In this document: positions 19,988-49,405 of the stretch, one piece after another
Layout: every line of letters starts with the position of its first letter
Position numbering within the stretch: position 1 is the stretch's first letter
NCBI GenBank assembly: GCA_964511945.1
Contig: CAZEHO010000004.1
Location: 41,193 to 105,192, forward strand
DNA length: 64,000 nucleotides
Source of the DNA: an uncultured Acidimicrobiia bacterium
GTDB lineage: Bacteria; Actinomycetota; Acidimicrobiia; Spongiisociales; UBA11373
Reading direction: 5' to 3'
Made by a program: the position numbers and the translations under genes
The notes under the pieces: model-generated
Told to the model about the DNA's origin: nothing
The model's database searches: none
What the model saw: only the letters and a program-made list of their open reading frames with translations

Positions 19988-20015
19988 TCTTCGGCACGAA
20001 ATCGCCTTTCCCGTA
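19988..20015 (-). promoter_or_regulatory. Putative sigma28/WhiG-type promoter of the giant surface protein (likely leaderless)
   Basis: Minus strand TACG-N16-GCCGAAGA, 7 nt before ATG 19980. Confidence 0.6.
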
Positions 20016-20052
20016 TAGGTTTCCAAGGGATTCGAGACCGGACCGAACCGGC

Positions 20053-21567
20053 TCAGCTGCGCCGGATCGCAGCGTCGTCCGGCGAGAAGGGAGGCGGGGG
20101 TACCAGCAGTGCCTCTGATGGGTCGATCGCCGGAAGCTCGTTCTCGATCACCGCGGGCTGCTCGGGGCGTTGCTTCCCGGTCAGGATCGGGGACTCGCGG
20201 TACTGCACAACCGGCTCGGATTGGTCGCCGAGCGGCACTTCGACGACGAACGAGGTCCATCCCTTGACGCGCTCGTAACGGACCGACCCGCCCATGCCCT
20301 CCGACAGCGCCTGAACAATCGACAGGCCGAGCCCAACGGAGCCAAGGACCAGCGGCATGGTGCCCTCGTGGAGGAACCGCTCGAACAGGCGGGCCTCCAA
20401 CTCGGCAGGAATCCCATCCCCATCGTCCCGAACCCGGAGTTCGTACCAGCCCTTGGTCGGCCGGCCGATCACCTGGATCGTCGGCCCCCCGTACTTGGCG
20501 GCGTTGGACAGCAGATTACGCACCACCTGGCGGAGGCGGAGCCGGTCGGCGTGGACCAGTGCCGGATGGCAGTCCACGTCAATCTCGACGCCGTTGCGAC
20601 GCAACGGTTCGATGGTCTCCCGAACCTCGTCGAGCACGCCCAGGTTCTCCACCTGGAAGTGGAGGGCACCGGCATCGAGGCGGGCCGTCGTCAGGAGGTC
20701 GTCGACCATGCGGTTCAGGTCGTGCGCCTCCCCGATGATCAAGCTCACCATCTCCGCCGCGGGCGGCGACGACATGACGATCTCGTCCTCTTCGAGGATG
20801 TGGGCCAGTCCGATGATCGAGGTGAGTGGTGTCCGCAGTTCGTGTGATGCATTTGCGACGAACTCGTCCCGGGCCTTGCCGATCTCCTGCTCACTCTCCA
20901 GCCTCACCTCCAGCTCGGCCTGACGAGTACGGCGCCGGGAGAGCTCGTGATACACCAGGATCACGCTGGTCGGCACGAGGAAGGCAACCAGGAACCGGGC
21001 GATGTCACCAATCCGGCCCATCACATCGCTCGAGGCGGCGATCGACGCCGCCCGCTCGTTCCGCTCGGCGATGATGGAGCTGACGGCGCTCCGGTAGCGC
21101 TCCTCGAGTGATCCGGCAGCGGTGGCTGCTGCGGTTTCCGAATCGCCCTCGGCGGCGGAGCCAAGCACGAGGGTCGCAGAGTCGATAAACCATCGAGAGG
21201 TGTCGGCGACCGCAGGGCGATCCTCCAGGTCCTGCAGCGCAGCCTCCAGGTCCTTGATCGCGGTCACCGCTTCGCCGACCGCCGCAGCCAGGGCGTCATC
21301 GGTATCAACCCCGAATTGGTCCCGGAGTGAGGCCAGGTGGGCGGCCAGGCCCGTTTGGAACCGGGCGGTCGAGATCGCCCGCAGTGCCTCGTCGGCATTG
21401 TGCAGGGCTTCAGCTTCCCGGGCGACGCCCTGGGAACCGAACGCAATCGAGAACACCAGCGCAAATACCAGGATGACGGCAACGCCGATCCCGACGGCGA
21501 GCGCGCCAAAGCGAGCGGCCCGTCGCGAACCGCGCCGCGAGCGCGTGGAGCGGAATGCCTTCGGCAT
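20053..21567 (-). CDS. Membrane sensor histidine kinase (no adjacent response regulator)
   Basis: Two TM segments, H-box FVANASHELRTPLTSI, N-box NLLSNAAKY, DDGDGI, GLGLSIV. Confidence 0.95.
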   Translation of the reverse strand: MPKAFRSTRSRRGSRRAARFGALAVGIGVAVILVFALVFSIAFGSQGVAREAEALHNADEALRAISTARFQTGLAAHLASLRDQFGVDTDDALAAAVGEAVTAIKDLEAALQDLEDRPAVADTSRWFIDSATLVLGSAAEGDSETAAATAAGSLEERYRSAVSSIIAERNERAASIAASSDVMGRIGDIARFLVAFLVPTSVILVYHELSRRRTRQAELEVRLESEQEIGKARDEFVANASHELRTPLTSIIGLAHILEEDEIVMSSPPAAEMVSLIIGEAHDLNRMVDDLLTTARLDAGALHFQVENLGVLDEVRETIEPLRRNGVEIDVDCHPALVHADRLRLRQVVRNLLSNAAKYGGPTIQVIGRPTKGWYELRVRDDGDGIPAELEARLFERFLHEGTMPLVLGSVGLGLSIVQALSEGMGGSVRYERVKGWTSFVVEVPLGDQSEPVVQYRESPILTGKQRPEQPAVIENELPAIDPSEALLVPPPPFSPDDAAIRRS

Positions 21568-21577
21568 ATCCCCATAT

Positions 21578-21605
21578 CCGTCGGTCCGCAGGCTGCTCGG
21601 GTTGA
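21578..21605 (-). promoter_or_regulatory. Putative sigma28/WhiG-type promoter of the histidine kinase
   Basis: Minus strand TCAA-N16-ACCGACGG, 10 nt before ATG 21567. Confidence 0.6.
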
Positions 21606-21609
21606 GGAA

Positions 21610-22734
21610 TCAGCTTCCCGGCTTGGCCACGGGGAATCGGAGCATTGCGCCGACGCGTTGCGGAGCCAGCTTGGTATCGGCCGTCAGATAGCGAACCGTC
21701 CCGCCATCACTCCTGGTCGCCTCGGCGAGCGCATCGGCCAGATCGGGGACGACACGCATGTCGCTCCCGCAGGCCGCGCACGCCCCGGCCTTGTCGTCGA
21801 GCAGGCCACACTCCGGGCACCGCGCCCCCGGGGTAAGGTCGATGACGTCGAGCAGCAGCGTGTCGATGCCTCGTTGGTTGGCGGCCCGGAGGCAATGGTC
21901 GAAACCGAGAGCGGCCCGGCCACCGGCGCCTGCCGCGTCGAGCAGGTCGGCCACCATCTCCTCGTCGATATTCTGCTCGTACTCGGCGACGAGCGCCCGG
22001 CACGTCGACCTGATGTCCGAGGGTCCGGCGGTGCCGGGATCCACGACGAAAGTCCCCGCCAATGCTGCCTCCAGATCGGACGGCAGCTCGTTGGCCAGCC
22101 CCGCAACGTTCGATTGCTGGCCGCCGATGATGAGCAGCTCGAACCCTCCACTCCGGTAGAGATCGGCGAGCCGAGCCGTGACCGAACGGAAGAGACGCTG
22201 GGCGACGGCCTCGGCGTGACCCCGGGTCCGCTGCTCGTCGTACCCGGCGAATCCGCCGTAGTTGTCCTTGCGGACCTCCTCCTCGCCGATCTGCTCCCAG
22301 GTCTCGAGTTCGCCCATGTAGAACCGGTAGATCCAGGCATTGCGCCGATCGACCACCACGGAACAGAAGCGGTGGAACTGCGCCAGCATCGCCTCCATGG
22401 GGCCCAGGTACGGGCTGGTGTCCACGATCGCCCGATCACGCACCCCGGTGGGAAGGCTGACGTGTTCCTCCATGCCCGACTCGGATCCGACAAAAAGCGC
22501 CAGACCACGTCCGAGGTCACCGCCGGCACGTTCGGCGAGCGCGACCACACGGTCGAGGTCGTTCCGCAGCCGCCGGCTCGTAGCCTCCTCGCGCAAGGGC
22601 TGGACGATGGCCTTGACCCGGGTGCCGATCGTCCGCAACTGATCAAGGTCGGGACGAAGACCCAGGTAGACCGAGACCACAGGACCGGCGGCGGGCGCGT
22701 TCCGGAGACGATCTACCACGCTTCGATCGAGCAC
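21610..22734 (-). CDS. Bacterial eRF1/Vms1-like release factor homologue (baeRF10-like) with Zn ribbon
   Basis: VVSVYL, GRGLALF, VVVDRRNAWIY, LIIGG, eRF1 domain-3-like region containing CPECG...CAACG; RBS GGAGG before GTG. Confidence 0.8.
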   Translation of the reverse strand: MLDRSVVDRLRNAPAAGPVVSVYLGLRPDLDQLRTIGTRVKAIVQPLREEATSRRLRNDLDRVVALAERAGGDLGRGLALFVGSESGMEEHVSLPTGVRDRAIVDTSPYLGPMEAMLAQFHRFCSVVVDRRNAWIYRFYMGELETWEQIGEEEVRKDNYGGFAGYDEQRTRGHAEAVAQRLFRSVTARLADLYRSGGFELLIIGGQQSNVAGLANELPSDLEAALAGTFVVDPGTAGPSDIRSTCRALVAEYEQNIDEEMVADLLDAAGAGGRAALGFDHCLRAANQRGIDTLLLDVIDLTPGARCPECGLLDDKAGACAACGSDMRVVPDLADALAEATRSDGGTVRYLTADTKLAPQRVGAMLRFPVAKPGS

Positions 22735-22763
22735 GGCACCTCCCTCTGTGCTGCATACTCAGC

Positions 22764-23684
22764 CTACGCGGGTGGCTCCGGGTTGGGACCGCTGCCCCGG
22801 CGGCGGCGCAGGATCACCCACCCACCGGCTCCGAGCAGACCGAGGAGCAGGGGAATGTGAAGGTTCGACCCGAGGACCAGCGCACCGGCCCTGCGGAGTG
22901 AGGGCGCGGCGGCAGCACCACCTCCACCGGGATCGAGCGCCCAGGCGCCGAGCCGGAACATCGCGGCAAAGCCCAACCCTCCGAGAGCAGTGCGAACGGC
23001 CAGGCTGCGAGCGATCCGCCGTCGATCGGACGCCAGCAGGAGTGCGGCTCCGGCCAGCCCCGCGGCGGAGACCGCTGCGACCACGGCGGCCGTCCGGAGC
23101 GCAGACCCGGCACCCACCAGGCCACTCCCCACCGGGGAAGCCTCACCAGTCTCGAGTTCGATGGGGCGTGCAGCCTCCACTCCCACCCGGATCACCTCTG
23201 CCACTTCCTGCTCACCGATGCGTTCGGCGGCCGCTTCAAGCTCGGGCAGCACCGCCCGCAGGTGCGCTTCGAGGTCGATGACGACGATCTCCCCGGGCGG
23301 AGCGAGTGCCGCTGCGACCAGATCGCCGACGACACGTTCGATGAGCTCCAGCGCCGCCGGCTCGGCGAGCACGGCCTGCAGCGGTGCCCGAACGTCGGCG
23401 GGGACGGATCCGAGGTCGTCGCCGGCCGCCTCGAGGAGCCAGTCGACCACCCGGTCGGAAACCGCAGCAGCCCCGGCGGCTTCGGTGGCCGCCTCCTCGA
23501 CGACCGGTTGATCGACCGTCACCGCCCGGCCCCAGAGTCCGACCAGCATCACTGTGATCGAGAGCCCATACAGCCACAGCATGACGCTGAGCGAGCCCGT
23601 TCGCAGGGCGCGTCTCCAGGCCGCCGACGGCGGCGGTGCGGCGGCGTCTGGATCCAGACGCGGCTGATCGAACGTGGCAACCAC
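22764..23684 (-). CDS. Hypothetical membrane protein
   Basis: One N-terminal and about three C-terminal TM segments flanking a helical acidic domain; start inferred. Confidence 0.65.
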   Translation of the reverse strand: MVATFDQPRLDPDAAAPPPSAAWRRALRTGSLSVMLWLYGLSITVMLVGLWGRAVTVDQPVVEEAATEAAGAAAVSDRVVDWLLEAAGDDLGSVPADVRAPLQAVLAEPAALELIERVVGDLVAAALAPPGEIVVIDLEAHLRAVLPELEAAAERIGEQEVAEVIRVGVEAARPIELETGEASPVGSGLVGAGSALRTAAVVAAVSAAGLAGAALLLASDRRRIARSLAVRTALGGLGFAAMFRLGAWALDPGGGGAAAAPSLRRAGALVLGSNLHIPLLLGLLGAGGWVILRRRRGSGPNPEPPA

Positions 23685-23816
23685 ACGACTCCGATGCTTT
23701 GGCCCAACCCCATGGTTCCCGGAACCGGCCGCAACGCCCACAGGAACCTGACAGTGCTCTCAGACTGAGTGACCCGATTCAGTTTTTTGGACCCGGCGCG
23801 CGAAGCTGGAAGCCTC

Positions 23817-24809
23817 ATGCAGACACCACGACTCTTCTCCATCCTTCCTGAGTACTGCGTCACCCCCGACGGCATGGCCATCGAGCCGGAGAGTGGTGAC
23901 CTCATCGTCTCCGCGCCCAATTTCGCCGATCCCAGCTGGCCGGGCTGCCTGCTGCGGTTCGACCAGGATCGCAACGTTCGCAAGTGGGTCGACGTCCCCA
24001 CTCACCCCGGGACCGGCCTCGCCCATCCCATGGGGATTGAATTCGGTCCCGACGGTGACCTCTACGTATGTGACAACCAGGGCTGGTCGGGCAAGCCCGA
24101 ACTGCAGTTCAAGAGCCGCATGCTCCGGCTCCGGATTCGTAACGACGAGGTCGTGAATTGCACCGTGGTGGCCGAGGGGATGGAGCATCCGAACGGCATC
24201 CGGATCCGGGACGAGTACATGTACGTCACCCAGAGCTTCCTCACCAAGGTCGACCACCCGAGCGGGCTGCTGACGAGCTGCGTGTACCGCTTCGGCCTCG
24301 ACGAAGAGGGCGTGCAGGTGACCAACACGCTGGCGGATCCCCACATCCTGGCGACCTTCGTGACCTGGAACGAGGACGATCAGTACGGCGCCGACGGCAT
24401 CGTGTTCGACGCCAACGGGGACCTGCTGGTGGGGAATTTCGGCGACGGAGCCGTTCACAAGATCGTGATGGACGACGACGGCAACGTTCTGTCCAACGAG
24501 GTCTGGGCCAAGGACCTCGACCAGATGCAGGTGACAGACGGGATGATCCTCGACCCGGACACCGGCAACGTGTACGTGGCCGACTTCTCACCGAATGCCA
24601 TTGCGATGCTGTCGCCGGACGGCACCGTCACCCGGATTGCGCAGAGCCCAGACTCAGACGGCACGAACGGCGAACTCGACCAACCCGGCGAGCCGATCAT
24701 CTGGCAGGGCAAGCTGGTCATTACCTGCTTCGACCTGGTGACCGGGCCGTCGAAGGTCAACACCGGCCACCAACTGCCGGCAACGATGTCCGAGCTGGAT
24801 CTGGAGTAG
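23817..24809 (+). CDS. SMP-30/gluconolactonase/LRE-family beta-propeller protein
   Basis: Repeated PDGMAI, PMGIEFGPDGDLYVCD, PNGI, ADGIVFD..GDLLV, TDGM..D...GNVYVAD. Confidence 0.85.
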   Translation: MQTPRLFSILPEYCVTPDGMAIEPESGDLIVSAPNFADPSWPGCLLRFDQDRNVRKWVDVPTHPGTGLAHPMGIEFGPDGDLYVCDNQGWSGKPELQFKSRMLRLRIRNDEVVNCTVVAEGMEHPNGIRIRDEYMYVTQSFLTKVDHPSGLLTSCVYRFGLDEEGVQVTNTLADPHILATFVTWNEDDQYGADGIVFDANGDLLVGNFGDGAVHKIVMDDDGNVLSNEVWAKDLDQMQVTDGMILDPDTGNVYVADFSPNAIAMLSPDGTVTRIAQSPDSDGTNGELDQPGEPIIWQGKLVITCFDLVTGPSKVNTGHQLPATMSELDLE

Positions 24810-24908
24810 GAACCACCGACGGGCCCAATCGGGACTGACGGCCCTAGACCCGCGCCCTTCACATCGGTTTGATGGATCCGACACGGATTCCCATCAGGGG
24901 GGAACACG

Positions 24909-25394
24909 ATGGTGTCCAGTGACGCCGCCGGGACCGGCGGGTTCATTCCCCGCACGGTGCTGCCGACGCACAATCTGACCCGGTACCTGCGCCTCAAGAT
25001 GGAGGTCAACGACGGAGTCCTGCGGTGGGAGGTGCCGCGGGCCCTGTTCGGGATCATCCCGATCGGCACCCACCGGTTGGCACTGCCGGTGGCCGAGGTC
25101 GAGTCGGCCACGATCGGACGGGCGGCCCGCCCCCTGCTGCTCGTGCTCGGCCTCGCCGCCATCGCAGTCCCGCCGTTCTTCACGCCGTGGTGGGTGATGG
25201 TCCCGATGATCCTCCTCGGCGTCTGGCTGACCCTGGTGTCGCTCGGGCCCCGGCTCGAGGTCTGGACGGTGACGGGCGAAAGACACAGGGCCCCGGTGTG
25301 TTTCGGACACCAGTTCGATGCCGACCTGTTTGCCGAAGCGGTGGTGCTCACTGCGCAGGAGGCGCGCGCCGGGGTGCAGCCCGACGACGGCTGA
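24909..25394 (+). CDS. Hypothetical membrane protein
   Basis: 161 aa, central TM hairpin, typical codon usage. Confidence 0.65.
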   Translation: MVSSDAAGTGGFIPRTVLPTHNLTRYLRLKMEVNDGVLRWEVPRALFGIIPIGTHRLALPVAEVESATIGRAARPLLLVLGLAAIAVPPFFTPWWVMVPMILLGVWLTLVSLGPRLEVWTVTGERHRAPVCFGHQFDADLFAEAVVLTAQEARAGVQPDDG

Positions 25395-25430
25395 ACCACC
25401 GTCGCCCCACTCCGGCGGTTGGGAGCCAGC

Positions 25431-25870
25431 GTGGACATGTCGACCAGCACCGTGATCGCTCGGACACCCGAGGACGTCTTCGCCTACGTGATGAAGACTG
25501 CTCATGACGCCGAATGACGCACCGGCGTCGTGGAGGCGGCATTGACGTCGGAGGGACTCATGGCCGTCGGCTCCACCGGATTCAACCGGGCCGAATCGGG
25601 CAACCCCTCGATCACTTCGCACTGGTGGGTCACCGAGCCCCGCGAGGGTGAGCTGGTCCGGTGGGAGCTGGTGGATGGCCCATTTGTCGGGACCGGTGGA
25701 TACCGCTGCGAGCCGCTGGACGGCGGCACCCGATTCACCCTCGAATCCGCGGTCGGCCCGACCGGCGTCTACCGGTTGGTCGGCCCCCTCTTCCGCATCA
25801 TGGGCCGGCGGCAGAACCGGTAGGACGTCGCGAAGCTCAAGGCGCTCCTCGAGCGGCAGCGGCCCGAGTC
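25431..25870 (+). pseudogene. SRPBCC (polyketide cyclase-like) pseudogene
   Basis: MDMSTSTVIARTPEDVFAYV..HDAE*RTGV...GGTRFT...RQNR*DVAKLKALLE; in-frame TGA at 25515-25517 (conserved Trp position) and TAG at 25821-25823; 3' end approximate. Confidence 0.75.
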
Positions 25871-25879
25871 GGCCTACGG

Positions 25880-26275
25880 AATCCCGGTGAAGCGGACGGC
25901 ATATTCATCCCAGCCGAGACCGGTGGACCGGGAAGATCTGCGAGGAGTTGCGGCAATATCCCGGCGTACTTGAGGATGGCCCGGGCCGCAATCCGGTGCC
26001 TCAGGAGCGGTCCGTCCGCCACCTCGCCGTAGCCGCTCCAGAAGTCCTCGAGATCAATCGTCCTGACCGCGGAACTGGTGCATGAACAGTGAAATGAACT
26101 CGTGGTCGGCGGGCCCGGTGCCGGCGTCATTCCAGTCGATCAGCGACCACGCCCCGCCGGGTGACCGGAGGAGTTTGATCGACGAGAGATCTCCGTGGAG
26201 GGTGGTGTCGCCGGCGGCGAGGTCTCCGACCGCCTCGACGCACGCCGCGGCGCCGGCGGTGAGATCCACGACGGC
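25880..26275 (-). pseudogene. Aminoglycoside/choline phosphotransferase-family remnant
   Basis: LHGDL...LIDW.DA..GP...EF motifs, frame change near 26055 into DFWSGYG; N-terminal lobe missing; boundaries approximate. Confidence 0.6.
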
Positions 26276-26279
26276 GGTG

Positions 26280-26738
26280 CTACCCGATGAGGGCGTGGAC
26301 GAGGCCGTCCTGTACCTGGCCGAGCACGTGCAGGAGCAGCATCTGCGGTGGAGCGCCCTCGGGTTCGACGTCGGTTTCCCACCCGTCCTCGGTGATGTTC
26401 AACCGCGACGCCAGTACCAGCCTCGCCTCACCGATGACCCGCGTCCACGCCTCGGCCTCCTCGAAGTCGAGCAGGTCCTTGCGCAGCGTGTCGGCAAAGC
26501 GCCTCCTGTCCTCGGCCCGGGCTTCCTCCAGCAGACCGGCGGTGAGGCTGCGGAACCGGTCGTCTGCCTCCGGATCGTCGGGATGAGCCCGATAGGACAG
26601 CCGCTCGACGGCGGGGTCGTCCGAGCGATCGATGTCCAGATCCTCCAGGATCTGCAGGGCCAGTGCCGCTACCCGGCGCTCCTGCTCACCAAGGAGCACT
26701 TCGATCCCGCCGGCGCGGCGGATGAATCCGAGTGTCAC
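26280..26738 (-). CDS. DUF2017 family protein
   Basis: GTGA overlap with clpS; DPAVERL..AHPDD...FRSLT, AEAW..IGEARLVLASRL. Confidence 0.85.
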   Translation of the reverse strand: MTLGFIRRAGGIEVLLGEQERRVAALALQILEDLDIDRSDDPAVERLSYRAHPDDPEADDRFRSLTAGLLEEARAEDRRRFADTLRKDLLDFEEAEAWTRVIGEARLVLASRLNITEDGWETDVEPEGAPPQMLLLHVLGQVQDGLVHALIG

Positions 26739-27025
26739 GCCTTCTCCAGTGTTGCCCAGAGCCCGTAGTGGTGGAGCCGGTGGCAATCCGATTCGACCTT
26801 CTCGAGGGTCCCGCTGGCCACTACCGCCCGGCCTTCGTGATGGACCTGGAGCATCAGCTCCGTCGCCTTCTCCATCGAGTACCCAAAGAGCTTGCGAAAC
26901 ACGAACACCACATACGTCATCAGGTTGACCGGGTCGTTCCAGACCACGACTTGCCAGGGGCGCAACGCATCCGGGAGTTCCCCGGTTTCGGGGAGATCGA
27001 CCCGGTCGGGCGCAGACGTCGTCAC
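26735..27025 (-). CDS. clpS: ATP-dependent Clp protease adaptor ClpS
   Basis: WQVVVWNDPVNLMTYVVFVFRKLFG, MLQVHHEGRAVV, LHHYGLWATL. Confidence 0.95.
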   Translation of the reverse strand: MTTSAPDRVDLPETGELPDALRPWQVVVWNDPVNLMTYVVFVFRKLFGYSMEKATELMLQVHHEGRAVVASGTLEKVESDCHRLHHYGLWATLEKA

Positions 27026-27246
27026 AGAATGGGGTCGCGCCGGCGCACCGACGCCCCAAAGCGCTGTGCATTCAGCCAGTCCTCGAAGTCCTGGCGGGCG
27101 ACGCGCCACTCCCGGCCCATCTTGATCCCGGGCAGCTCTCCCGAGCGCAATACCCGGGTGACGACAAAAGTCGAGACATCCATGTACTCACAGATATCGG
27201 CGACGGACAGCCAGTCCTTGCTGAGATCGACCGTGATCCGCTCCAT
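27022..27246 (-). CDS. Excisionase-like (HTH_17/MerR-type) small DNA-binding protein
   Basis: WLSVADICEYMDVSTFVVTRVLRSGELPGIKMGREWRV; stop overlaps the clpS start. Confidence 0.88.
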   Translation of the reverse strand: MERITVDLSKDWLSVADICEYMDVSTFVVTRVLRSGELPGIKMGREWRVARQDFEDWLNAQRFGASVRRRDPIL

Positions 27247-27308
27247 GCCGACAGGGTATGGGACCGGAGGCCACCCCGGCAAGGGCGTCGCGTACACTGG
27301 CCACTCGT

Positions 27309-27944
27309 ATGGCCCAATCCAAGAAACGCAAGCCGAGCAAGCCGTCGTCCGCCGAAGCTCAACAGCAGCGTGAGGAGGCCCGCCGTAAGGCGGCCGCCGA
27401 GAGGCGCTCTCGGGAGGCGGCCGAGAAGAAGCGCAAGGAGCGGATCGAGCGGGTCCGCAAGCTGATCACGCCGACCCTGGCCGTGATCGCCGTGTTCGTT
27501 CTGTCGATCATGATCATCCGGCCGGCTCCCGAGGTACGGGGTATTGCCACCGCCGACGAGGTCGAGGGCAGGGCCCTGGCCGCCGATGAGACCCACGACT
27601 ACGGCACCGCCACCCCGACCAGCGGGCCGTACTCGCCGGACCCGCCGGTGTGCGGAGTCTTCGCCGAGCAGGTAGCCGCCGAGGATGCCGTTGCCGCGCA
27701 ACGAGTCGGAGCGGTAGTGCTGTGGTACTCCGATCCCGCCGTCGCCGACGAGCTCACCGAGTACGCCGGCGGTTTCGAGTCGCACGTGATCGTCTCCCCC
27801 AACGCCGGGATCGAGGATCCGATCGTGGCCACGGCATGGATCCGCCGGAAGGCTTACGACACGGTGGCCGAGGTCATCGACGACGATTTTGCCGGGGTGT
27901 ACCGCCTGCAGAGAGACGTCGAGGGCGACTGCCCCTTCCAGTAG
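27309..27944 (+). CDS. DUF3105-like membrane-anchored protein
   Basis: Basic helical N-terminus, one TM, PTSGP..P..CG, GAVVLWY, IVSP, IVATAW. Confidence 0.75.
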   Translation: MAQSKKRKPSKPSSAEAQQQREEARRKAAAERRSREAAEKKRKERIERVRKLITPTLAVIAVFVLSIMIIRPAPEVRGIATADEVEGRALAADETHDYGTATPTSGPYSPDPPVCGVFAEQVAAEDAVAAQRVGAVVLWYSDPAVADELTEYAGGFESHVIVSPNAGIEDPIVATAWIRRKAYDTVAEVIDDDFAGVYRLQRDVEGDCPFQ

Positions 27945-28119
27945 GGGATCCGATCAGCCGGCCGGGAGCAGTGCGACCGGGGTGCTAGTGGCGGCGCGGT
28001 CGGCACCATCGCCGCCGCCGGCAGCAGGGCTCCCCCAGCAACTACGGAGAGGTCGTGCATTCCCACCGCGCGTAGTGATCCTGCTGCAACGCCTCCGGGC
28101 CGAGAGCGCGAAAAACGAT

Positions 28120-28156
28120 TCAAGTTTCGAGTGACTAGTGCCGAAGGACTAGTCAC
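28120..28156 (+). promoter_or_regulatory. Putative sigma28/WhiG-type promoter, -10 enclosed by a 9-bp inverted repeat
   Basis: TCAA(GTTT)-N16-GCCGAAGG; GTGACTAGT (28131-28139) and ACTAGTCAC (28148-28156). Confidence 0.65.
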
Positions 28157-28165
28157 AAGAACAAC

Positions 28166-29137
28166 ATGCTTGAGATTCCCACCCGAATGAGCGCCCGGGT
28201 GCCGGACCGGACACCGGTCCGTCTGCCCATTCCGGCCGGATGGCTTCCGTGGCTGACGCCACTGCTCGGCATCGCCGCGGTCACGCTGATCGCCGTCGCC
28301 GATTGGTTCACCGGCCCCACCGTGTCGCTGGAGATGCTCTATGCGATCGCGGTAATGGCTGCTGCCTGGCTCGGCGGTGCCCGCCAGGGGATTCTGGCGG
28401 CGGGCGTTGCCGGCGCCGACAGCCTCGCGGCGCACGCCCTTCGGCTCGAACCGATCATGGTCACCCCCGGGACCCTGTGGAACGCCGGGACCCGGTTTAC
28501 TGCCCTGGCTCTGATCGCCGCGGTCGTCGGACGGCTGCGGGCGGTCCTGCTCGAACAGCGGCACCACGCGATGACTGACCCCCTGACCGGTGCGCTGAAT
28601 CGGCGGGCCTTCCAGATGGCAGCCGAGCGGGAGCGCCAACGCTCACGGCGGGAACACACTCCCCTGACACTCGCCTATCTGGACCTGGATGGGTTCAAGT
28701 CGGTGAACGACCGGCTCGGGCACGCGGTGGGCGATGCGATGCTCACCCGCTTTGCCGACACGATCACCCGGACGATTCGCGGCAGCGACCTGCTGTGCCG
28801 CATCGGCGGAGATGAATTTACCGTGCTGCTCCCGGCGACCGATGCCCGCAGTGCGGTGGTCGTGCTCAACCGGATTCGCAGCGTCCTCGCCGAGCGCTGT
28901 GCCAGTTGCCCGGATCAGACGATGACGGCTTCGATCGGCATCGCCACGTTCCATGAGGCCCCCGAGACGGTCGGAGAGATGGTCGCCCAGGCCGACCGGC
29001 TCATGTACCGGGCGAAGGCCAACGGCAAGGATCGGATCGTCGGATCGGTGATCTCGGGAAGTTGGCGTCGCTGGGGTGACCGGACCCGCGCCGATGCCGC
29101 AGGTGTCAGCGCCGATTTCCGGGCGATCTCCGGCTAG
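28166..29137 (+). CDS. Membrane diguanylate cyclase (GGDEF)
   Basis: ~4 TM helices, DPLTGALNRR, DLDGFKSVND, RGSD I-site five residues before an intact GGDEF. Confidence 0.93.
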   Translation: MLEIPTRMSARVPDRTPVRLPIPAGWLPWLTPLLGIAAVTLIAVADWFTGPTVSLEMLYAIAVMAAAWLGGARQGILAAGVAGADSLAAHALRLEPIMVTPGTLWNAGTRFTALALIAAVVGRLRAVLLEQRHHAMTDPLTGALNRRAFQMAAERERQRSRREHTPLTLAYLDLDGFKSVNDRLGHAVGDAMLTRFADTITRTIRGSDLLCRIGGDEFTVLLPATDARSAVVVLNRIRSVLAERCASCPDQTMTASIGIATFHEAPETVGEMVAQADRLMYRAKANGKDRIVGSVISGSWRRWGDRTRADAAGVSADFRAISG

Positions 29138-29598
29138 CCGGCGGCGCGTCGCCGCCGCACCACTCCCACCACGAAAGCCACCAACGCCGCCACCAATGCG
29201 GCGGCCTTCACCGAGGCAAAAACGGTGGTGATGGCAGCCACCGCTCCGGACGGGTTCGTTGAATCCGAGAGCAGCACAAGGATGCCGACGTTCTCGAGCG
29301 CATCGCACAGCGCCGCCAGTGGGGCCAACCAGACCAGCACGGATCCTGACCCGAGCGCCCAGCGAAGTGCGCCGGTAACCCCGAGGCCGAGCACCGCGAT
29401 GAAGAGGTAGTCGACCGCCGTCTGGGCGCGAGCCGCCCCGAGGTCCCATCCGGCCATGGCTGCTGCAGCATTCTCGGAGCTGCCGGCGAACTCGAGGTCG
29501 AGAATCTCGGACCCCGGTGCGATCAACCCGAGCACGATGAATACCGCCACCGCAGCGGCCAGCAGGTACGGCCAGAACCGATCAACCCGATCGAGCAT
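29134..29598 (-). CDS. Hypothetical membrane protein
   Basis: 4 TM segments, DYLFI..., AALCDALEN, FASVK. Confidence 0.7.
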   Translation of the reverse strand: MLDRVDRFWPYLLAAAVAVFIVLGLIAPGSEILDLEFAGSSENAAAAMAGWDLGAARAQTAVDYLFIAVLGLGVTGALRWALGSGSVLVWLAPLAALCDALENVGILVLLSDSTNPSGAVAAITTVFASVKAAALVAALVAFVVGVVRRRRAAG

Positions 29599-40360: not shown

Positions 40361-40366
40361 GCCGCC

Positions 40367-42258: not shown

Positions 42259-42261
42259 CGG

Positions 42262-43618: not shown

Positions 43619-43639
43619 CAGGCCTCCTGACTTGGGGTC

Positions 43640-43659: not shown

Positions 43660-43740
43660 GCCGCCGGTGATTTTGGATGGCCCGGAGAATCACACGCGTG
43701 TCAGTACCATCGGCCTGCCGGCAGCCTCACTGGAGCGTTC

Positions 43741-46700
43741 ATGCACAGCGGTCACGACCTCTCCAACGAGTGGCTCGTCGCCGAAATGCGGGATCGCTTC
43801 GTCGAGGACCCGCGCTCGGTCAGCGAAGCCTGGCGCCGGTTCTTTTCCGGAGAGGAAGTCCCGGCGGAGCCCGCCGCTACCACCGAGCCGCTGCCGCTCC
43901 CGGCGGAATCCAGGCCCGAACCATCCTCCGCCCCGGCGCCACCACCACCAGCGGCCGCCCCGGAATCCGACACTCCGGAACCGGCACCTGATGACGATGG
44001 TGCCGACGTCGAGCGCATGATCGGCGCCCCGGCTCGCATCGTCGAGGCGATGGAAACGAGCCGGGAGATCCCGACCGCCACCTCGGTGCGTTCGATTCCG
44101 GCGAGGCTGCTCGAGGTCAATCGGGCGGTGATCAACAACCAACTGAAGCGCCTCGACGATCCCCGCAAGGTGAGCTTCACCCACGTCATCGGATGGGCGG
44201 TGGTTCGAGCGCTCGCCGAACGGTCTGCGATGAACACCGCCTACCGGGAGATCGGCGGCGACCCGCACGCGGTGCGCTACCGGCATGTCAACTTGGGCCT
44301 GGCGATGGACATGCCGGCACGCGACGGCGGCCGCACCCTGCTCGTCCCGAACATCAAGGCCGCCGAGGAGATGGACTTCCGCGGCTTTTGGGAGGCCTAC
44401 GAGGAGATGGTCGGCCGGGTGCGAGCCGGGAGAATCACCCCCGACGATTTTGCCGGGACCACGGCGACCCTCACCAACCCCGGCACGGTGGGCACCGTGC
44501 AATCGGTCCCCCGTCTCATGGTCGGCCAGGGCGTGATCATCGGGGTTGGGGCCATCGGCTATCCGCCCGAGTATCAGGGCGCCGATCCCGCCTACCTGGC
44601 ACGCTCCGGAACCGGGCGGTCGATCACGATGACCTCCACCTACGACCACCGGGTGATCCAGGGAGCGGAGAGCGGCCTCTTCCTGGCCCGGATCCACCAG
44701 CTCCTGCTCGGCGAGGACGGGTTCTACGACGAGGTCTTCTCGTCCATGGGCATCCCGTACCTCCCGGCCCGCTGGGCGATCGACCGGCACCCGCCACCGG
44801 GGAGCAACGAATGGGCCGAGAAGCAGGCCCGGGTATTCCAGCTCATCAACATGTTCCGGGTCCGGGGGCATCTCATCGCCGATCTCGATCCGCTCCGCCT
44901 CGGCGGTCCCACGGTCCACTCGGAACTCGACCCCCTTACGTACGGGCTCACCATCTGGGACCTCGACCGGACATTCGCCACCGGCGGCTTCGGCGGCGAG
45001 CAGAGCTCGACGCTGGGCAAGATTCTGGCCCGGCTGCGAGACGCGTACTGCCGAACCATCGGCATCGAGTACATGCACATCCAGATTCCGGAGCAGAAGA
45101 ACTGGATCCAGCAGGCCGCCGAGGCCGATCCCGAGGAACTCACCCGGGCCGAGAAGCAGCGGATCCTCTCCAAGCTCGCCGAAGCCGAAACGTTCGAGCG
45201 CTTCGTGCACACCAAGTACCTGGGTCACAAGCGGTTCAGCCTGGAGGGATCGGAGACCTTGATCCCGATGCTCGATTCGCTGCTCACCAAAGCGGCCGGA
45301 GCCGGCATGCACGAGGTTTCCATCGGCATGGCGCATCGGGGCAGGCTCAACGTGCTCGTCAACGTGATCGGGAAACCCTTTGCCCGGGTCTTCCGCGAGT
45401 TCGAGGGCGAGGTCGACCCCCGCACCCTGTACGGGTCGGGCGACGTGAAGTACCACGTTGGGGAGGAAGGCGTGCACGAGGCCCCGGACGGCACACGGGT
45501 GACCGTCGAGGTGGTCTCCAACCCGAGCCATCTCGAGGCGGTCGATCCGGTGCTCGAGGGGATCGTCCGGGCCAAGCAGGACGCACTCGGCCCGGGAGCA
45601 GAAGATCTGATACTTCCGGTCCTCATCCACGGTGATGCGGCCTTTGCAGGCCAGGGGGTCGTGGCAGAGACCCTCAACCTCTCGCAGTTGGAGGGGTACT
45701 CAACGGGCGGCACGGTGCACATCGTGGTGAACAACCAGGTCGGCTTCACCACCGATGCCGCCGACGCTCGATCCAGCTTCTACGCCACCGATATCGCCAA
45801 GGCGATCCAGGCCCCGATCTTCCATGTGAACGGTGACGATCCGGAGGCGGCGGTCCGGGTGATCCGGCTGGCGTTCGCCTACCGGCAGGCGTTCCACCGC
45901 GACATCGTGATCGACCTGGTGTGTTACCGCCGCCTCGGCCACAACGAGGGAGATGATCCCTCGCTCACCCAGCCGTCGATGTACCGGGCCATCGATGAAC
46001 ACCCGCCGCTCACCAAGGTGTACGGGAGCCGGTTGGTAGGCCGTGAAGAGATGACCGACGCAGACGTCGCCGGGATCGAGGGGCACATCAGGTCCCGGCT
46101 CGACGCCGCCCTGGCGGAGACCCGGGAGCGGCCGGCGGTGCTCGAGTTCGATGCGGCACCGGCTCCCGCGCCGGCGCCGGTCGACACCACGGTGCCGGCC
46201 GCCGCCCTCACCGATCTCGAAGCACAGCTCGCAGCGATCCCCGACGGATTCACCGTGCACCCCCGGCTGGCAAAGGTGCTTGCGGACCGCTCGGAGCTGT
46301 TTGCGTCGGGCTGGGTCGACTGGGCGCTCGGGGAAGCCCTCGCCTTTGCGTCACTGGCCGAGGATGGGATCCGGGTTCGCCTGGCCGGTGAGGACAGCCG
46401 CCGCGGGACGTTCAGCCATCGCCATGCGGTCCTGGTCGATCACCGGACCGAGGAGGAACACTCCCCGATCGAGACCCTCGAGACTGCGGATGCCCAGGTG
46501 CAGCTGGTCGACAGCTTGCTTTCCGAGTTCGCCGCCATGGGCTTCGAGTACGGCTACTCGGTTGTGGCGCCGGATGCACTGGTCATGTGGGAGGCACAGT
46601 TCGGAGATTTCGTCAACGGCGCCCAGGTCATCATCGACCAGTTCCTCTCCGCCGGAGAGGACAAGTGGGGACAGCCGAGCAGTCTGGTGCTGCTCCTCCC

Positions 46701-47334
46701 CCACGGCTTCGAGGGGCAGGGGCCGGAGCACTCGAGCGCCCGCATCGAGCGTTTCCTCCAGCTCAGTGCGGAGGACAACTGGCGGGTCGTGGTGCCGTCG
46801 ACCCCGGGCCAGTACTTCCACGCCCTGCGGCGCCAGGTGCTCGACCCGGTGCGCAAGCCGCTGGTCATGTTCACCCCGAAGTCGCTCCTGCGGACCAGGG
46901 CCTCGTACAGCCCGGCACCCGAGCTGAGCTCGGGTGGATTCCACGCAGTGCTGCCGGATCCGGCTCCGGCGGCGCAGATCCACCGGGCGGTGCTGTGTTC
47001 CGGGAAGCTCTATTACGACCTGCTCCGGGCCCGGCCCGAAGGCAGTGATGTCGCCCTGATCCGCGTCGAGCAGCTCTACCCCTTCCCGGTCGAAGAGATC
47101 GCCGCCGTCCTCCCCGACGACTCCGAGGTGGTGTGGGCACAGGAGGAGCCGGCGAACATGGGTGCAGCAGCGTTCGTGGAGCACCATCTGACGGCTGCGG
47201 GCCGTCCGCCCACCGTCATCAGCCGCGAGGAGAGCGCCAGCCCGGCCACCGGGAGCGCCGCGGTGCACGCCGAGGAGCAGGCTGAGTTGATTCGGCAGGT
47301 GTACGCAACCCGAGATCAGAGATCAGAGGTTTGA
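43741..47334 (+). CDS. sucA: Multifunctional 2-oxoglutarate decarboxylase/dehydrogenase (E2-E1 fusion, Kgd/OdhA type)
   Basis: TSTYDHRVIQGAESG acyltransferase domain, KRFSLEG, GDVKYH, HGDAAFAGQG, WEAQFGDF, GQGPEHSS. Confidence 0.96.
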   Translation: MHSGHDLSNEWLVAEMRDRFVEDPRSVSEAWRRFFSGEEVPAEPAATTEPLPLPAESRPEPSSAPAPPPPAAAPESDTPEPAPDDDGADVERMIGAPARIVEAMETSREIPTATSVRSIPARLLEVNRAVINNQLKRLDDPRKVSFTHVIGWAVVRALAERSAMNTAYREIGGDPHAVRYRHVNLGLAMDMPARDGGRTLLVPNIKAAEEMDFRGFWEAYEEMVGRVRAGRITPDDFAGTTATLTNPGTVGTVQSVPRLMVGQGVIIGVGAIGYPPEYQGADPAYLARSGTGRSITMTSTYDHRVIQGAESGLFLARIHQLLLGEDGFYDEVFSSMGIPYLPARWAIDRHPPPGSNEWAEKQARVFQLINMFRVRGHLIADLDPLRLGGPTVHSELDPLTYGLTIWDLDRTFATGGFGGEQSSTLGKILARLRDAYCRTIGIEYMHIQIPEQKNWIQQAAEADPEELTRAEKQRILSKLAEAETFERFVHTKYLGHKRFSLEGSETLIPMLDSLLTKAAGAGMHEVSIGMAHRGRLNVLVNVIGKPFARVFREFEGEVDPRTLYGSGDVKYHVGEEGVHEAPDGTRVTVEVVSNPSHLEAVDPVLEGIVRAKQDALGPGAEDLILPVLIHGDAAFAGQGVVAETLNLSQLEGYSTGGTVHIVVNNQVGFTTDAADARSSFYATDIAKAIQAPIFHVNGDDPEAAVRVIRLAFAYRQAFHRDIVIDLVCYRRLGHNEGDDPSLTQPSMYRAIDEHPPLTKVYGSRLVGREEMTDADVAGIEGHIRSRLDAALAETRERPAVLEFDAAPAPAPAPVDTTVPAAALTDLEAQLAAIPDGFTVHPRLAKVLADRSELFASGWVDWALGEALAFASLAEDGIRVRLAGEDSRRGTFSHRHAVLVDHRTEEEHSPIETLETADAQVQLVDSLLSEFAAMGFEYGYSVVAPDALVMWEAQFGDFVNGAQVIIDQFLSAGEDKWGQPSSLVLLLPHGFEGQGPEHSSARIERFLQLSAEDNWRVVVPSTPGQYFHALRRQVLDPVRKPLVMFTPKSLLRTRASYSPAPELSSGGFHAVLPDPAPAAQIHRAVLCSGKLYYDLLRARPEGSDVALIRVEQLYPFPVEEIAAVLPDDSEVVWAQEEPANMGAAAFVEHHLTAAGRPPTVISREESASPATGSAAVHAEEQAELIRQVYATRDQRSEV

Positions 47335-47844
47335 GCCCGGCAGCCGGTGCCGCCCCAACGCGACCAGCACCAGGTTCTTCCCCCAGGCCGGGATCTCTCG
47401 CCCGTAGCCGTTGACCAGCCACCGGAGGAACGAGGCATCGCCCCGCTGCCGAACCGGGTCACCGGTGACGGAGAGGCCGAATCGGCGGAACAGAAACCGG
47501 GCCCGCGGCAGGTGGTAGCGGTCGGTGACCAAACACAACGTCCTCCACCCGGCTTGTCCTGCCATGGCGGAGACGAAGCGGGCGTGCTCCAGCGTCGAGG
47601 TCGAGCGGTCCTCGAGCACGATCCGCTCGTCGGGGAACCCGGCATCGATCGCAATCCGGCGCATCGCCTCCGCCTCTGAGATCGGAGCATCGCCGGAGCC
47701 GCCCGAGGCCACCAGCACCGAGTCGGGGAAACGCCGGGCAACCTCGACAGCATGCTCCGCCCTCCTTCGCAGCGACGGAGACGGCCGGCCCGAGGGATAG
47801 ACCTGGGCACCGAGGATCACGACGGCTTCGGGAGCATCTGTCAC
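47323..47844 (-). CDS. YdcF/ElyC (DUF218) family protein
   Basis: VILGA, SGG, SEAEAM, EDRSTSTLE, VTDRYHLPRA; start inferred. Confidence 0.88.
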   Translation of the reverse strand: MTDAPEAVVILGAQVYPSGRPSPSLRRRAEHAVEVARRFPDSVLVASGGSGDAPISEAEAMRRIAIDAGFPDERIVLEDRSTSTLEHARFVSAMAGQAGWRTLCLVTDRYHLPRARFLFRRFGLSVTGDPVRQRGDASFLRWLVNGYGREIPAWGKNLVLVALGRHRLPGSNL

Positions 47845-47918
47845 GCGGTAGAAGATTACGAGGCAGGCCCGGCCCGTCCGTGATACGGTTTCGTCCGAAC
47901 TTCTGGGAAGGAGGACCC

Positions 47919-48005
47919 GTGCATACCCAAGTTGCCATCGCGGCATTGCCGCGTTCCGGTACCCCAGCACATCGGGTGCTCCGGACCGATTCCATTCCTG
48001 CGTAA
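47919..48005 (+). CDS. Putative leader peptide of rsgA (28 aa)
   Basis: AAGGAGG RBS, GTG...TAA: MHTQVAIAALPRSGTPAHRVLRTDSIPA; TG-n-TACGGT extended -10 upstream. Confidence 0.55.
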   Translation: MHTQVAIAALPRSGTPAHRVLRTDSIPA

Positions 48006-48046
48006 GCAGGCGTCGTCCCGAGCACCCCTGCACCGAGGAGTGCTCA
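47960..48046 (+). promoter_or_regulatory. Putative translational attenuator of rsgA
   Basis: AGCAC (47966-70), GGGTGCTC (47974-81), GAGCACCC (48020-27) and GTGCTC (48040-45) allow 1:2+3:4 or 2:3 pairing; 3:4 sequesters the GAGGAG RBS. Confidence 0.55.
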
Positions 48047-48049
48047 ACG

Positions 48050-49165
48050 TTGCATCACCCCATCCCGGCGTCGCGTCCTGAGACGCCCGGCGCCGAACTG
48101 ATCGAATACGGCTGGAACGATGACGTCGCGTCCGGCCTCCACCGCTTCGAGACTCCAGAACCCATCAACGGCCGTGTGATCCGAGTCGATCGCGGCGGCT
48201 TCATCGCGATCACATCGAACGGCGTCGTGGCATGCACACCAACCGGTGGTGCGCTTCCCGACGAATCCGAGCAAGGACCGGTCGCCACCGGCGACTGGGT
48301 GGTCCTGCGCACCGTGCCGGGGTACGGCCTCGATCTGGCCGGCATCCTCGCCAGGCACACCGCCATTCGCAGAGCCGATCCGAGTGCGACCGGCTACCAG
48401 GTACTCGCTGCCAACGTCGACGTCGTGTTCGTGGTGGTGTCCATGGACCGGCCCCTCAAACCGGGACGGATCGAGCGGTTGCTCGTCGTGGCCTGGGAGA
48501 GTGCGGCCACACCGGTGGTCGCCGTCACCAAAACCGACCTGGCCGAATCAGGAGCGATCGCCGTCGACCCGGAGGCCTTCCTCACCGGGGTCGCCACAGC
48601 AGCAACCGGAGTCGATGTCCTGGCCGTCAGCGGCGCGACCGGCGATGGCATCGATCTGCTGGAGCCACACCTGTTGCCGGGTGCCACCGTTGCGCTCATC
48701 GGGGAGTCGGGGGTGGGCAAGTCGACCCTCGCCAATGCCGTAATCGGAGCAGAACGATTCGACACCGGCCCTACCCGGACAGGTGACTCCATGGGTCGCC
48801 ACACCACGACGTCGCGGGAACTGGTCGTCCTGCCCTCCGGCGCCCTGCTCATCGACACGCCCGGCCTGCGAGCTGTCGCGCTGGCAGACGGGGGCGGCGG
48901 AGTCGCCCAGGCGTTTCCCGAAATCGAGGGATTGGCACAGACCTGCCGTTTCCGGGATTGCGGCCACGACCACGAACCCGGCTGCGCGGTGACGGGCGCG
49001 ATCGCCGACGGGACCCTGAACGAACGGCGGCTGCAGAGCTATCGGAAGCTGCAGCGGGAGGCGGCCCACGAAGCGCGCCGGGCCGACATCAGGACGAGAC
49101 AGGCCGCAACCAGGGAGCATCGCCGGCGCTACAACCGGATGCGAGACAGGGACCGGGAGTGGTGA
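48050..49165 (+). CDS. rsgA: Ribosome small subunit-dependent GTPase A
   Basis: OB fold (TGDWV), circularly permuted TKTD, GESGVGKS, GRHTT, DTPG; Zn site CRFRDCGH..EPGC. Confidence 0.93.
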   Translation: MHHPIPASRPETPGAELIEYGWNDDVASGLHRFETPEPINGRVIRVDRGGFIAITSNGVVACTPTGGALPDESEQGPVATGDWVVLRTVPGYGLDLAGILARHTAIRRADPSATGYQVLAANVDVVFVVVSMDRPLKPGRIERLLVVAWESAATPVVAVTKTDLAESGAIAVDPEAFLTGVATAATGVDVLAVSGATGDGIDLLEPHLLPGATVALIGESGVGKSTLANAVIGAERFDTGPTRTGDSMGRHTTTSRELVVLPSGALLIDTPGLRAVALADGGGGVAQAFPEIEGLAQTCRFRDCGHDHEPGCAVTGAIADGTLNERRLQSYRKLQREAAHEARRADIRTRQAATREHRRRYNRMRDRDREW

Positions 49166-49169
49166 CCGG

Positions 49170-49349
49170 CTAGGCCGTGCGGGCCAGCGAGTCGGCCGAT
49201 TCGCCGTTGCCGGCAACCGGGGTCTCGATGTGTGCGTCCTGGATCGTGTTGATGATCGCCCGCCAGTCGCGGGTCAGAGCACACTTCCCGCAGTAGTACC
49301 CCTCGTCGCGTTTGACGACGGCCGGGTCGCCGCATGTGGTGCAGTTCAT
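49170..49349 (-). CDS. 59-aa CxxC-CxxC zinc-finger microprotein
   Basis: AGGAG RBS, MNCTTCGDPAVVKRDEGYYCGKCALTRDW... Confidence 0.72.
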   Translation of the reverse strand: MNCTTCGDPAVVKRDEGYYCGKCALTRDWRAIINTIQDAHIETPVAGNGESADSLARTA

Positions 49350-49377
49350 GGCGCGGGCTCCTGTTCTGACACAGTGA

Positions 49378-49405
49378 AGGTCGGCAGCAAGCCCACCGGA
49401 CTTGA
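49378..49405 (-). promoter_or_regulatory. Putative sigma28/WhiG-type promoter of the Zn-finger microprotein
   Basis: Minus strand TCAA(G)-N16-GCCGACCT. Confidence 0.65.

Follow-up and report, generated by a model that had tools for sequence, protein, structure and literature searches.

The sigma-28 factor FliA of enterobacteria couples surface appendage genes to the turnover of cyclic di-GMP (c-di-GMP) and to feedback on itself, and through the class-3 regulon it also transcribes the anti-sigma gene flgM and c-di-GMP genes. A similar arrangement is considered here for a 64,000-nucleotide (nt) stretch of DNA from an uncultured Acidimicrobiia bacterium (C4:41193-105192), referred to below as the window. 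Four genes of the window, which encode a giant surface-repeat protein, a membrane histidine kinase, a GGDEF diguanylate cyclase, and a zinc-finger microprotein, are preceded by one bipartite motif, and this shared motif is, by its sequence, the published WhiG/FliA consensus. The motif probably represents a conserved promoter class read by the WhiG sigma factor of the same genome. This interpretation of the sites is supported for the kinase, cyclase, and zinc-finger genes and probable for the giant gene. Unlike in the enterobacterial FliA system, neither FHIPEP (flagellar export gate) nor FliG_C was found in the genome, and the anti-sigma factor is RsiG rather than FlgM.

The WhiG-RsiG-c-di-GMP switch has previously been studied in Streptomyces, in the context of sporulation, and in Rubrobacter, in the context of type IV pili. 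The complex of Streptomyces venezuelae (PDB 6pfj, 6pfv) is the best solved relative of both proteins of the present genome. Streptomyces WhiG, however, drives sporulation regulators (Denis et al., bioRxiv 10.64898/2026.01.14.699351), whereas the targets predicted here are surface and signaling proteins. The closer parallel is Rubrobacter radiotolerans, a non-sporulating unicellular actinobacterium that likewise has WhiG, RsiG, and a sigma-28-type consensus (PMC8325347). The (RsiG)2-(c-di-GMP)2-WhiG regulon reported there consists of type IV pilus operons and of diguanylate cyclase and phosphodiesterase genes, and the pili-plus-cyclase core of the regulon predicted here matches it. The two systems differ in three respects. 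RsiG of R. radiotolerans is a single-motif homodimer, whereas the present RsiG is of the twin-motif type with H in place of Q; PMC8325347 records twin-motif RsiG in three of four Acidimicrobiales species. Twelve R. radiotolerans promoters were confirmed by start-site mapping, whereas the present promoters are predicted from sequence. Finally, the target set predicted here extends to a giant repeat protein, an orphan kinase, and a zinc-finger microprotein.

A phylum-wide prediction of WhiG1 and WhiG2 regulons is provided by Denis et al., whose search motif is identical to that of the window. The queries used for WhiG are T(A/C)AA-N16-GCCGA and CTCA-N16-17-GCCGA with a required CGA core in that study, and TAAA/GCCGATAA in PMC8325347. 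According to Denis et al., c-di-GMP metabolism is the most widespread predicted class of WhiG targets, and WhiG encoded outside flagellar clusters goes together with RsiG (WhiG2). The main text of that study contains none of the terms 'Acidimicrobi', 'adhesin', 'histidine kinase', 'leaderless', and 'zinc', although its supplementary tables may list such targets; nor does the main text describe an operator across the -10 element, for which the cyclase promoter of the window has a candidate. WhiG control of cyclase genes has already been predicted (PMC8325347; Denis et al.) and is hence not new. Among the papers found to name both 'Acidimicrobi' and 'WhiG', no title concerns such a regulon, and the sole relevant item is PMC8325347, for RsiG in Acidimicrobiales. 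The gain is therefore one of breadth and new parts rather than of principle, since WhiG control of c-di-GMP enzymes and surface appendages has been published. By comparative genomics, the switch and a coherent target set appear to be conserved throughout an entire family of Acidimicrobiia-type genomes from uncultured marine bacteria, with a leaderless orphan kinase, a giant cadherin/He_PIG repeat protein, an I-site-bearing cyclase, and a 59-residue zinc-finger family as new candidate targets.

Promoter motif and its conservation

The assembly that contains the window (G000) comprises 3.41 Mb at 66% GC in 65 contigs, in which a simple codon-usage caller predicted 3269 genes with 90% coding density. 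The promoter criteria follow the methods of Denis et al.: the CGA core is invariant, no more than one mismatch is allowed in positions 1-2, and the spacer measures 15-17 nt. For comparison, 40 relatives were searched, some in other genera of the family and some in different families of the order, giving 41 genomes with the one under study. The 41-genome tallies take in the unpublished genomes G028 and G039, and the kinase figures take in locus L095 (from G028, without the motif); the remaining claims do not draw on these two genomes.

The initial annotation had placed one motif with a 16-nt spacer before four genes, and all four strings were found at those positions and on those strands (Table 1). 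The -10 element is ACCGA at site 2 and GCCGA at the other three sites, the spacer is N16 throughout, and every site is intergenic and no more than 200 nt upstream of a start codon. With the -35 element taken as T(A/C)AA, or as CTCA one base upstream, sites 2, 3, and 4 all carry TCAA. Site 2 lies within the 42-nt gap behind the upstream baeRF-family gene.

Table 1. Candidate promoters, the genes behind them, and the inverted repeat, in window positions
Feature	Position	Strand	Description
Site 1, candidate giant-gene promoter	20015-19988	-	TACG-N16-GCCGAAGA; octamer end 7 nt before ATG 19980
Site 2, WhiG-type kinase promoter	21605-21578	-	TCAA-N16-ACCGACGG (cTCAAc-N15-ACCGACGG); octamer end 10 nt before ATG 21567
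Site 3, WhiG-type cyclase promoter	28120-28147	+	TCAA-N16-GCCGAAGG (TCAAG-N15-GCCGAAGG); octamer end 18 nt before ATG 28166
Site 4, WhiG-type zinc-finger promoter	49405-49378	-	TCAA-N16-GCCGACCT (cTCAAG-N15-GCCGACCT); octamer end 28 nt before ATG 49349
Giant surface-repeat protein, 3249 residues	10231..19980	-	Arg-rich N-terminus, then transmembrane/signal segment
Membrane histidine kinase, 504 residues	20053..21567	-	Pfam HisKA and HATPase_c; two transmembrane segments, outside loop of ~150 residues (hydropathy)
Membrane-anchored GGDEF diguanylate cyclase, 323 residues	28166..29137	+	Pfam GGDEF (PF00990), 140.6 bits; transmembrane segments
Zinc-finger microprotein, 59 residues	49170..49349	-	CxxC-N13-CxxC, then helix; no Pfam or NCBIfam family match
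Inverted repeat, candidate operator	28131..28156		GTGACTAGT-GCCGAAGG-ACTAGTCAC; ACTAGT-N8-ACTAGT, cyclase -10 at center

In the window, TCAA-N16-RCCGA occurs 8 times, five of them inside genes, where shuffled sequence would give 1.11, and the union pattern of the initial annotation has 8 matches against 2.68 expected. Over the whole genome with genes unmasked, T[AC]AA-N16-GCCGA has 89 matches against 79-109 at in-phase spacings, with no excess at N16. The unmasked counts reflect codon periodicity, and the motif was therefore examined in intergenic DNA as defined by the gene calls. In this approach the spacer length k serves as an internal control, and matches are counted if they are at least 80% intergenic and oriented to a gene no more than 300 nt away. 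The pattern T[AC]AA-Nk-GCCGA then yields 12 matches at k = 15 (Poisson P ~3e-10), 16 at k = 16 (Poisson P ~4e-15), and 3 at k = 17, against 0-3 at each of eleven other spacings (mean 0.91). The enrichment upstream of genes that the initial annotation had put forward as a check is thus borne out, and at the correct spacing only.

Positions that were not selected for are skewed as well: among the strict matches at k = 15 and 16, C stands 5' of TCAA in 20 of 28 and G stands 3' of it in 21 of 28, which gives a local consensus of cTCAAG-N14/15-GCCGA(T/C/A). The shifted frame CTCA-N17-GCCGA has 16 intergenic matches against 0-4 at other spacings, the variant TCAG-N16-GCCGA has 9 against 1-5, and the class of site 2, TCAA-N16-ACCGA, is also enriched (4 matches against a mean of 0.6, P ~0.004). 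The strict genome-wide set contains sites 3 and 4, while under the relaxed pattern sites 2, 3, and 4 are the sole intergenic matches within the window. Genome-wide, the relaxed pattern has 39 and 47 matches against ~21 at other spacings, an excess that suggests roughly 45 real sites.

The motif is retained across genera. In its relaxed form it occurs in the last 90 nt before the start at 17 of 19 orthologous loci for the cyclase, 16 of 19 for the zinc-finger gene, and 16 of 19 for the kinase. The remainder of these loci has 55 matches over 391,078 strand positions, or ~0.009 per 90-nt window. Judged by eye, the rest of the intergenic DNA around the motif is not alignable in the relatives. For these three genes, the conservation upstream of orthologues that the initial annotation had put forward as a check is therefore found.

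The placement of start codons adds a geometric regularity to this picture. Of the 18 kinase loci that bear the promoter, 12 have their first in-frame start codon 6-8 nt past the -10 octamer. At the zinc-finger loci the distances are bimodal, 6-7 nt in 8 of 18 and 24-34 nt in 10 of 18, and at the cyclase loci the distance is at most 12 nt in 15 of 19. This placement fits a fixed transcription start ~7-8 nt past the octamer, with either leaderless or Shine-Dalgarno-led mRNAs. Leaderless mRNAs are common in Actinobacteria.

It is very improbable that the four sites are functionless and match so short and degenerate a pattern by chance, the genome being GC-rich. Such a view could draw on the lack of an N16 excess in the unmasked genome, on the window matches inside genes, and on the background frequency of the class to which site 1 belongs, but it leaves the spacing-specific intergenic enrichment, the cross-genus conservation against the background of ~0.009 per window, and the leaderless geometry of the start codons without an explanation. 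For sites 2-4, chance is, on this sequence evidence, already contradicted.

WhiG, RsiG, and the second sigma-28-like gene

A WhiG gene is present at C1:48630-49424, in the context dprA-xerC-whiG-rpsB-tsf. Its product scores 349.7 bits with NF004935, above the curated cut-off of 343, and 275.9 bits with TIGR02479 (cut-off 189.6), and its closest solved relative is S. venezuelae WhiG (PDB 6pfj, 6pfv; E 2e-87). The anti-sigma factor is represented by a twin-motif RsiG at C12:12562-13104 (Pfam PF22802), for which a full-length alignment to RsiG of S. venezuelae (6pfj_T) is obtained at E 2e-15. The region of the first motif (C12:12613-12801) scores 51.2 bits with PF22802 against a cut-off of 27, and that of the second (C12:12913-13095) 26.1 bits, just below it. 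The exact RsiG motif regex had no match in all proteins and six frames; it missed the true RsiG because of a Q-to-H change in the c-di-GMP motifs. WhiG and RsiG are co-distributed, each being found in the same 40 of 41 genomes. In G033 (97% complete), the sole genome without them, the cyclase and zinc-finger queries are also unmatched. Each computational check proposed for the WhiG regulon in the initial annotation, namely a sigma-28 gene, an RsiG homologue, enrichment, and conservation, thus supports that reading.

The 24 other genomes of the family contain exactly one sigma-28 match each, of the WhiG type and 76-90% identical across these genomes, and the kinase, cyclase, and zinc-finger promoters are conserved there; no flagellin match was found in the same 24 genomes. 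WhiG is therefore the only candidate reader in those genomes. In the genome under study it is the likely reader of the window promoters, with possible cross-talk from a second sigma-28-like protein encoded at C42:11028-12122.

This second protein could be the actual reader of the window promoters in place of WhiG, although this is improbable. By profile it belongs to the FliA/WhiG subfamily, and its gene stands behind a promoter of the same type, adjoining a flagellin-like gene preceded by TAAAG-N14-GCCGA. The promoters are, however, also conserved in the 24 family genomes whose single sigma-28 match is of the WhiG type, and with neither FHIPEP nor FliG_C found there is no flagellar system for the C42 sigma factor to serve. 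The preferred reader thus remains WhiG. The C42 insertion itself (C42:11028-13839) lies between rplL and rpoB and comprises the 191-residue flagellin-like gene, a 185-residue GGDEF fragment, and the 364-residue sigma-28-like gene, with WhiG-type promoters at two of the three genes, including the TAAAG-N14-GCCGA of the flagellin-like gene. The sigma-28-like protein has a weak FlgM-like N-terminal match, and the composition of the contig is like that of the rest of the genome (tetranucleotide r 0.985).

Several points weigh against the assignment to WhiG and have to be set beside this evidence. Site 1 has the -35 element TACG (ATAC in the CTCA frame), which agrees in only 2 of 4 positions and falls short of the published criteria, and its class is at background genome-wide, both as TACG-N16-GCCGA (3 matches against ~1.5) and in the wider form T[AC][not A][not A]-N16-GCCGA (43 against ~50, no enrichment); support from relatives is limited at this site to three orthologues in two genera. 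At site 2 the -10 begins with A, and the start codon lies 10 nt rather than 7 nt past the octamer. The C42 protein is a second sigma-28-like candidate, at 182-183 bits with TIGR02479, below the cut-off of 189.6, and its gene has a matching promoter of its own (TCAAG-N15-GCCGA). The c-di-GMP motifs of RsiG, D(X)3S(X)2R(X)3H(X)3D and E(X)3S(X)2R(X)3H(X)3D, deviate from the reference E(X)3S(X)2R(X)3Q(X)3D by H for Q in both and D for E in the first; according to PMC8325347, H is frequent in the first RsiG motif, and an H-type RsiG binds c-di-GMP. Gene starts were taken from the simple gene caller, and the related genomes are non-independent samples in the conservation counts.

A few further observations concern these regulators. 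No clear WhiG-type promoter was found upstream of whiG, rsiG, or bldD. A CCGATA(A/G)G-like string precedes rsiG (C12:12440-12561; loci L180-L199) in the genome under study and in ~6 of 20 relatives, without a recognizable -35 element; WhiG might conceivably control its own anti-sigma gene in this way. The 225-residue protein at C11:61357-62034 was considered as RsiG and set aside as an RsiG-like paralogue (Pfam RsiG 33.2 bits, PDB E ~0.09). It has one recognizable motif and, as L036:3004-3678:-, homologues of 48-86% identity in metagenomes, and it could be the partner of the second sigma-28-like protein. A BldD homologue at C10:26948-27427 has both domains (PDB 2ewt E 3e-16, 4oay E 6e-11) and an RQD-X8-RRDD c-di-GMP motif, so that a second c-di-GMP-responsive regulator is probably present.

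The giant gene and the inverted repeat at the cyclase promoter

The giant gene begins 72 nt downstream of the kinase stop codon. Full orthologues of the N-terminal part of its product were found only in G018 and G007, which belong to one genus, and in G008 of another, and in all three the gene lies directly 3' of the kinase orthologue. All three have CTCA-N17-GCCGAT(A/G)(G/A) followed after exactly 7 nt by the first possible start codon (GTG or ATG), and then an Arg-rich stretch and a transmembrane segment. Site 1 of the window retains the octamer GCCGAAGA, the 7 nt, and the ATG, with TACG/ATAC replacing the CTCA of the relatives. On this comparison, site 1 is probably a promoter, though a weakened one. 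The claim of one promoter shared by four genes accordingly stands for the kinase, cyclase, and microprotein, through enrichment and conservation; for the giant gene, the -10 kept in three of three orthologues favors it, while the poor -35 and the unenriched class do not.

An alternative is that site 1 is inactive and that the giant gene is read through from site 2 as part of a kinase-adhesin operon, with GCCGAAGA as a decaying remnant. This possibility deserves serious, if less than even, weight. The gap between the two genes is short and contains no terminator-like site, the adjacency is repeated in G018, G007, and G008, and site 1 has the TACG element and a class at background level. What it does not account for is the -10 octamer with its exact 7-nt spacing to the first start codon, which is kept in all four genomes, and the good CTCA -35 of the orthologues. 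By either route, its own promoter or read-through, the giant gene would be under WhiG. In the region 19800-23900, a scan for sigma-70-type promoters found no promoter-like site, and a terminator scan found one terminator-like site, within the baeRF-family gene, and none in the kinase-giant gap.

A scan of 185,579 species genomes with the giant N-terminal alignment gave 53 loci and no start-site orthologue beyond the three, most loci being from other phyla with the domain inside larger proteins. Such homologues, mostly domain-internal, occur for example in metagenome-assembled genomes labelled as several other phyla (L110, L112, L116, L117), and a few of the loci have sigma-28-like strings upstream, such as TAAT-N16-GCCGATAA.

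At the cyclase promoter, the -10 octamer forms the center of an inverted repeat (Table 1). ACTAGT-N6-10-ACTAGT occurs at the same position in 14 of 19 cyclase orthologues, and the sequence of the arms is itself conserved, not merely their complementarity, which favors an operator bound by protein over an RNA hairpin. With arms that enclose GCCGAnnn exactly and keep their sequence in these 14 orthologues, one might take the GCCGA for the mere center of a protein operator rather than for a -10 element. This is very unlikely, however: conservation extends to a correctly spaced cTCA(A/G)G -35, TCAA-N16-(G/A)CCGA is kept in orthologues that lack the repeat (e.g. L046, L056), and the same -10 is present at promoters that have no repeat. 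The cyclase site is therefore treated below as a WhiG-type promoter with a candidate operator laid across it.

Elements of this kind recur near other motif copies. Genome-wide, 8-mers of the cyclase palindrome occur at only 15 loci, three of which, those of the cyclase, the RTX/M23 protein, and the ParA-like protein, have WhiG-type promoters. The promoter of a DUF11 surface protein has ACTAGT-N8-ACTAGT immediately upstream of it, and at a paralogous kinase gene the promoter overlaps with a related palindrome. In the loci of the relatives, 38 of 52 ACTAGT copies lie within 50 nt of a WhiG-type motif, in zones that make up 9% of bases, although most of the 38 are the cyclase promoters themselves. 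The arm ACTAGTCAC is found upstream of the giant-gene promoter in G018 and G007. It is conceivable, and put forward here tentatively, that a second DNA-binding protein, recognizing GTGACTAGTCAC or ACTAGT-N8-ACTAGT, gates part of the WhiG regulon. This part would include the cyclase, a 1744-residue DUF11/SdrD-type protein, and the RTX/M23 and ParA-like genes, together with the giant orthologues in two relatives.

BldD was considered as the reader of the ACTAGT element and rejected, as the homologue is present but the published box TNAC-N5-GTNA (PMC4151990) does not fit. As a separate observation, perfect or near-perfect copies of the palindrome GTGACTAGTCAC occur in intergenic DNA at C2:187716, C2:346912, C3:155411, and C18:54455 and near the kinase locus in many relatives (loci L080-L092), and the palindrome looks like a family-wide candidate operator.

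Predicted regulon, mechanism, and gene products

The content of the regulon was assessed from the Pfam families of the genes behind the 31 strict matches at k = 15-17. Predicted pilus targets are PilB, a pilin, and a PilT-like ATPase. The signaling targets comprise three GGDEF proteins including that of the window and two more histidine kinases, and the large surface or secreted repeat proteins are the 1744-residue DUF11/SdrD_B protein and an RTX-repeat/M23 protein. A camelysin-like protein, a MerR regulator, a ParA-like protein of 922 residues, the second sigma factor, and the flagellin-like gene are further predicted targets, and 10 of the 31 genes have no Pfam family. Several others seem unrelated (a GMC oxidoreductase, an alpha-amylase, a major facilitator superfamily transporter, a thiamine pyrophosphate enzyme, and a cytochrome c), so some matches are probably false.

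In the proposed mechanism, WhiG would recognize cTCA(A/G)G, a spacer of 14-15 nt, and (G/n)CCGA(T/A/C), and WhiG-RNA polymerase would start transcription ~7-8 nt past the -10 octamer. Transcription of the kinase gene, and probably that of the giant gene, would then begin at or next to the start codon and give a leaderless mRNA; the cyclase would have a very short leader and the zinc-finger gene a Shine-Dalgarno-bearing leader of ~28 nt. The activity of WhiG would be set by c-di-GMP-loaded twin-motif RsiG, and an active-looking cyclase that depends on WhiG would close a negative feedback loop. The four genes of the window would belong to a regulon of roughly 30-45 promoters. What the sequences show directly is the motif, its enrichment in intergenic DNA at particular spacings, its conservation and geometry, and the occurrence and joint distribution of WhiG and RsiG. 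From these comparisons we infer the identity of the sigma factor, the transcription starts, the c-di-GMP dependence, the feedback, the function of the operator, and an attachment program.

The cyclase promoter may in addition be gated by a protein bound to the ACTAGT-N8-ACTAGT repeat; with the -10 inside its binding site, this protein would be a direct competitor of WhiG-RNA polymerase. Such an operator could show a second regulator layered on a sigma-28 promoter. If the protein responds to c-di-GMP, or if it is the partner that the orphan kinase lacks, the result would be a two-input switch, with RsiG-c-di-GMP acting on the sigma factor and the operator acting on the promoter. Should this be true, the choice between motility by pili and attachment by adhesins would depend on both inputs in abundant uncultured marine Acidimicrobiia, and the zinc-finger microprotein, conserved and WhiG-dependent, would add one more regulatory component, as yet undescribed.

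Residues 205-218 of the cyclase (RGSDLLCRIGGDEF) contain RGSD-X5-GGDEF, that is, an intact active-site motif and an RxxD I-site 5 residues upstream; judged by these residues the enzyme is active-looking, and c-di-GMP feedback to RsiG could follow. Its orthologues are 42-54% identical in 19 genomes. The kinase has no response regulator gene adjacent to it, and its orthologues show 56-62% identity in 12 family genomes and weaker similarity beyond the family. The giant protein contains 19 He_PIG and 6 Big_9 domains together with cadherin-like, PKD, CBM96, and DUF11 matches.

The zinc-finger microprotein is present in 22 of 24 family genomes, with C3, C6, C20, C23, R14, D28, W29, and Q37 invariant in 20 sequences. 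The AlphaFold2 model reaches a pLDDT of 97 for residues 1-30. A Foldseek search of this model against the PDB gave no match at E <= 0.001, the best being generic zinc-finger-plus-helix folds at E 0.89, and the neighbors of the microprotein in a protein atlas were only unnamed clusters (0.91). A predicted complex of WhiG, the microprotein, and Zn scored 0.25, below the 0.32 mark and without controls, and bears neither way. The cyclase gene and the zinc-finger gene each have convergent neighbors and are apparently monocistronic.

Two genes lie on the far side of site 2. The one directly upstream of the kinase (21610-22734, minus strand) matches baeRF_family10 (bacterial eRF1-like) at 64.9 bits, with a weak zinc-ribbon match, and is preceded by a gene for a 306-residue protein without a family. 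An Rfam scan of the window returned no families. In the stretch 19500-29400, 77-84% of the sampled words are present in three seawater or marine metagenome runs from two studies, beside a possible source run.

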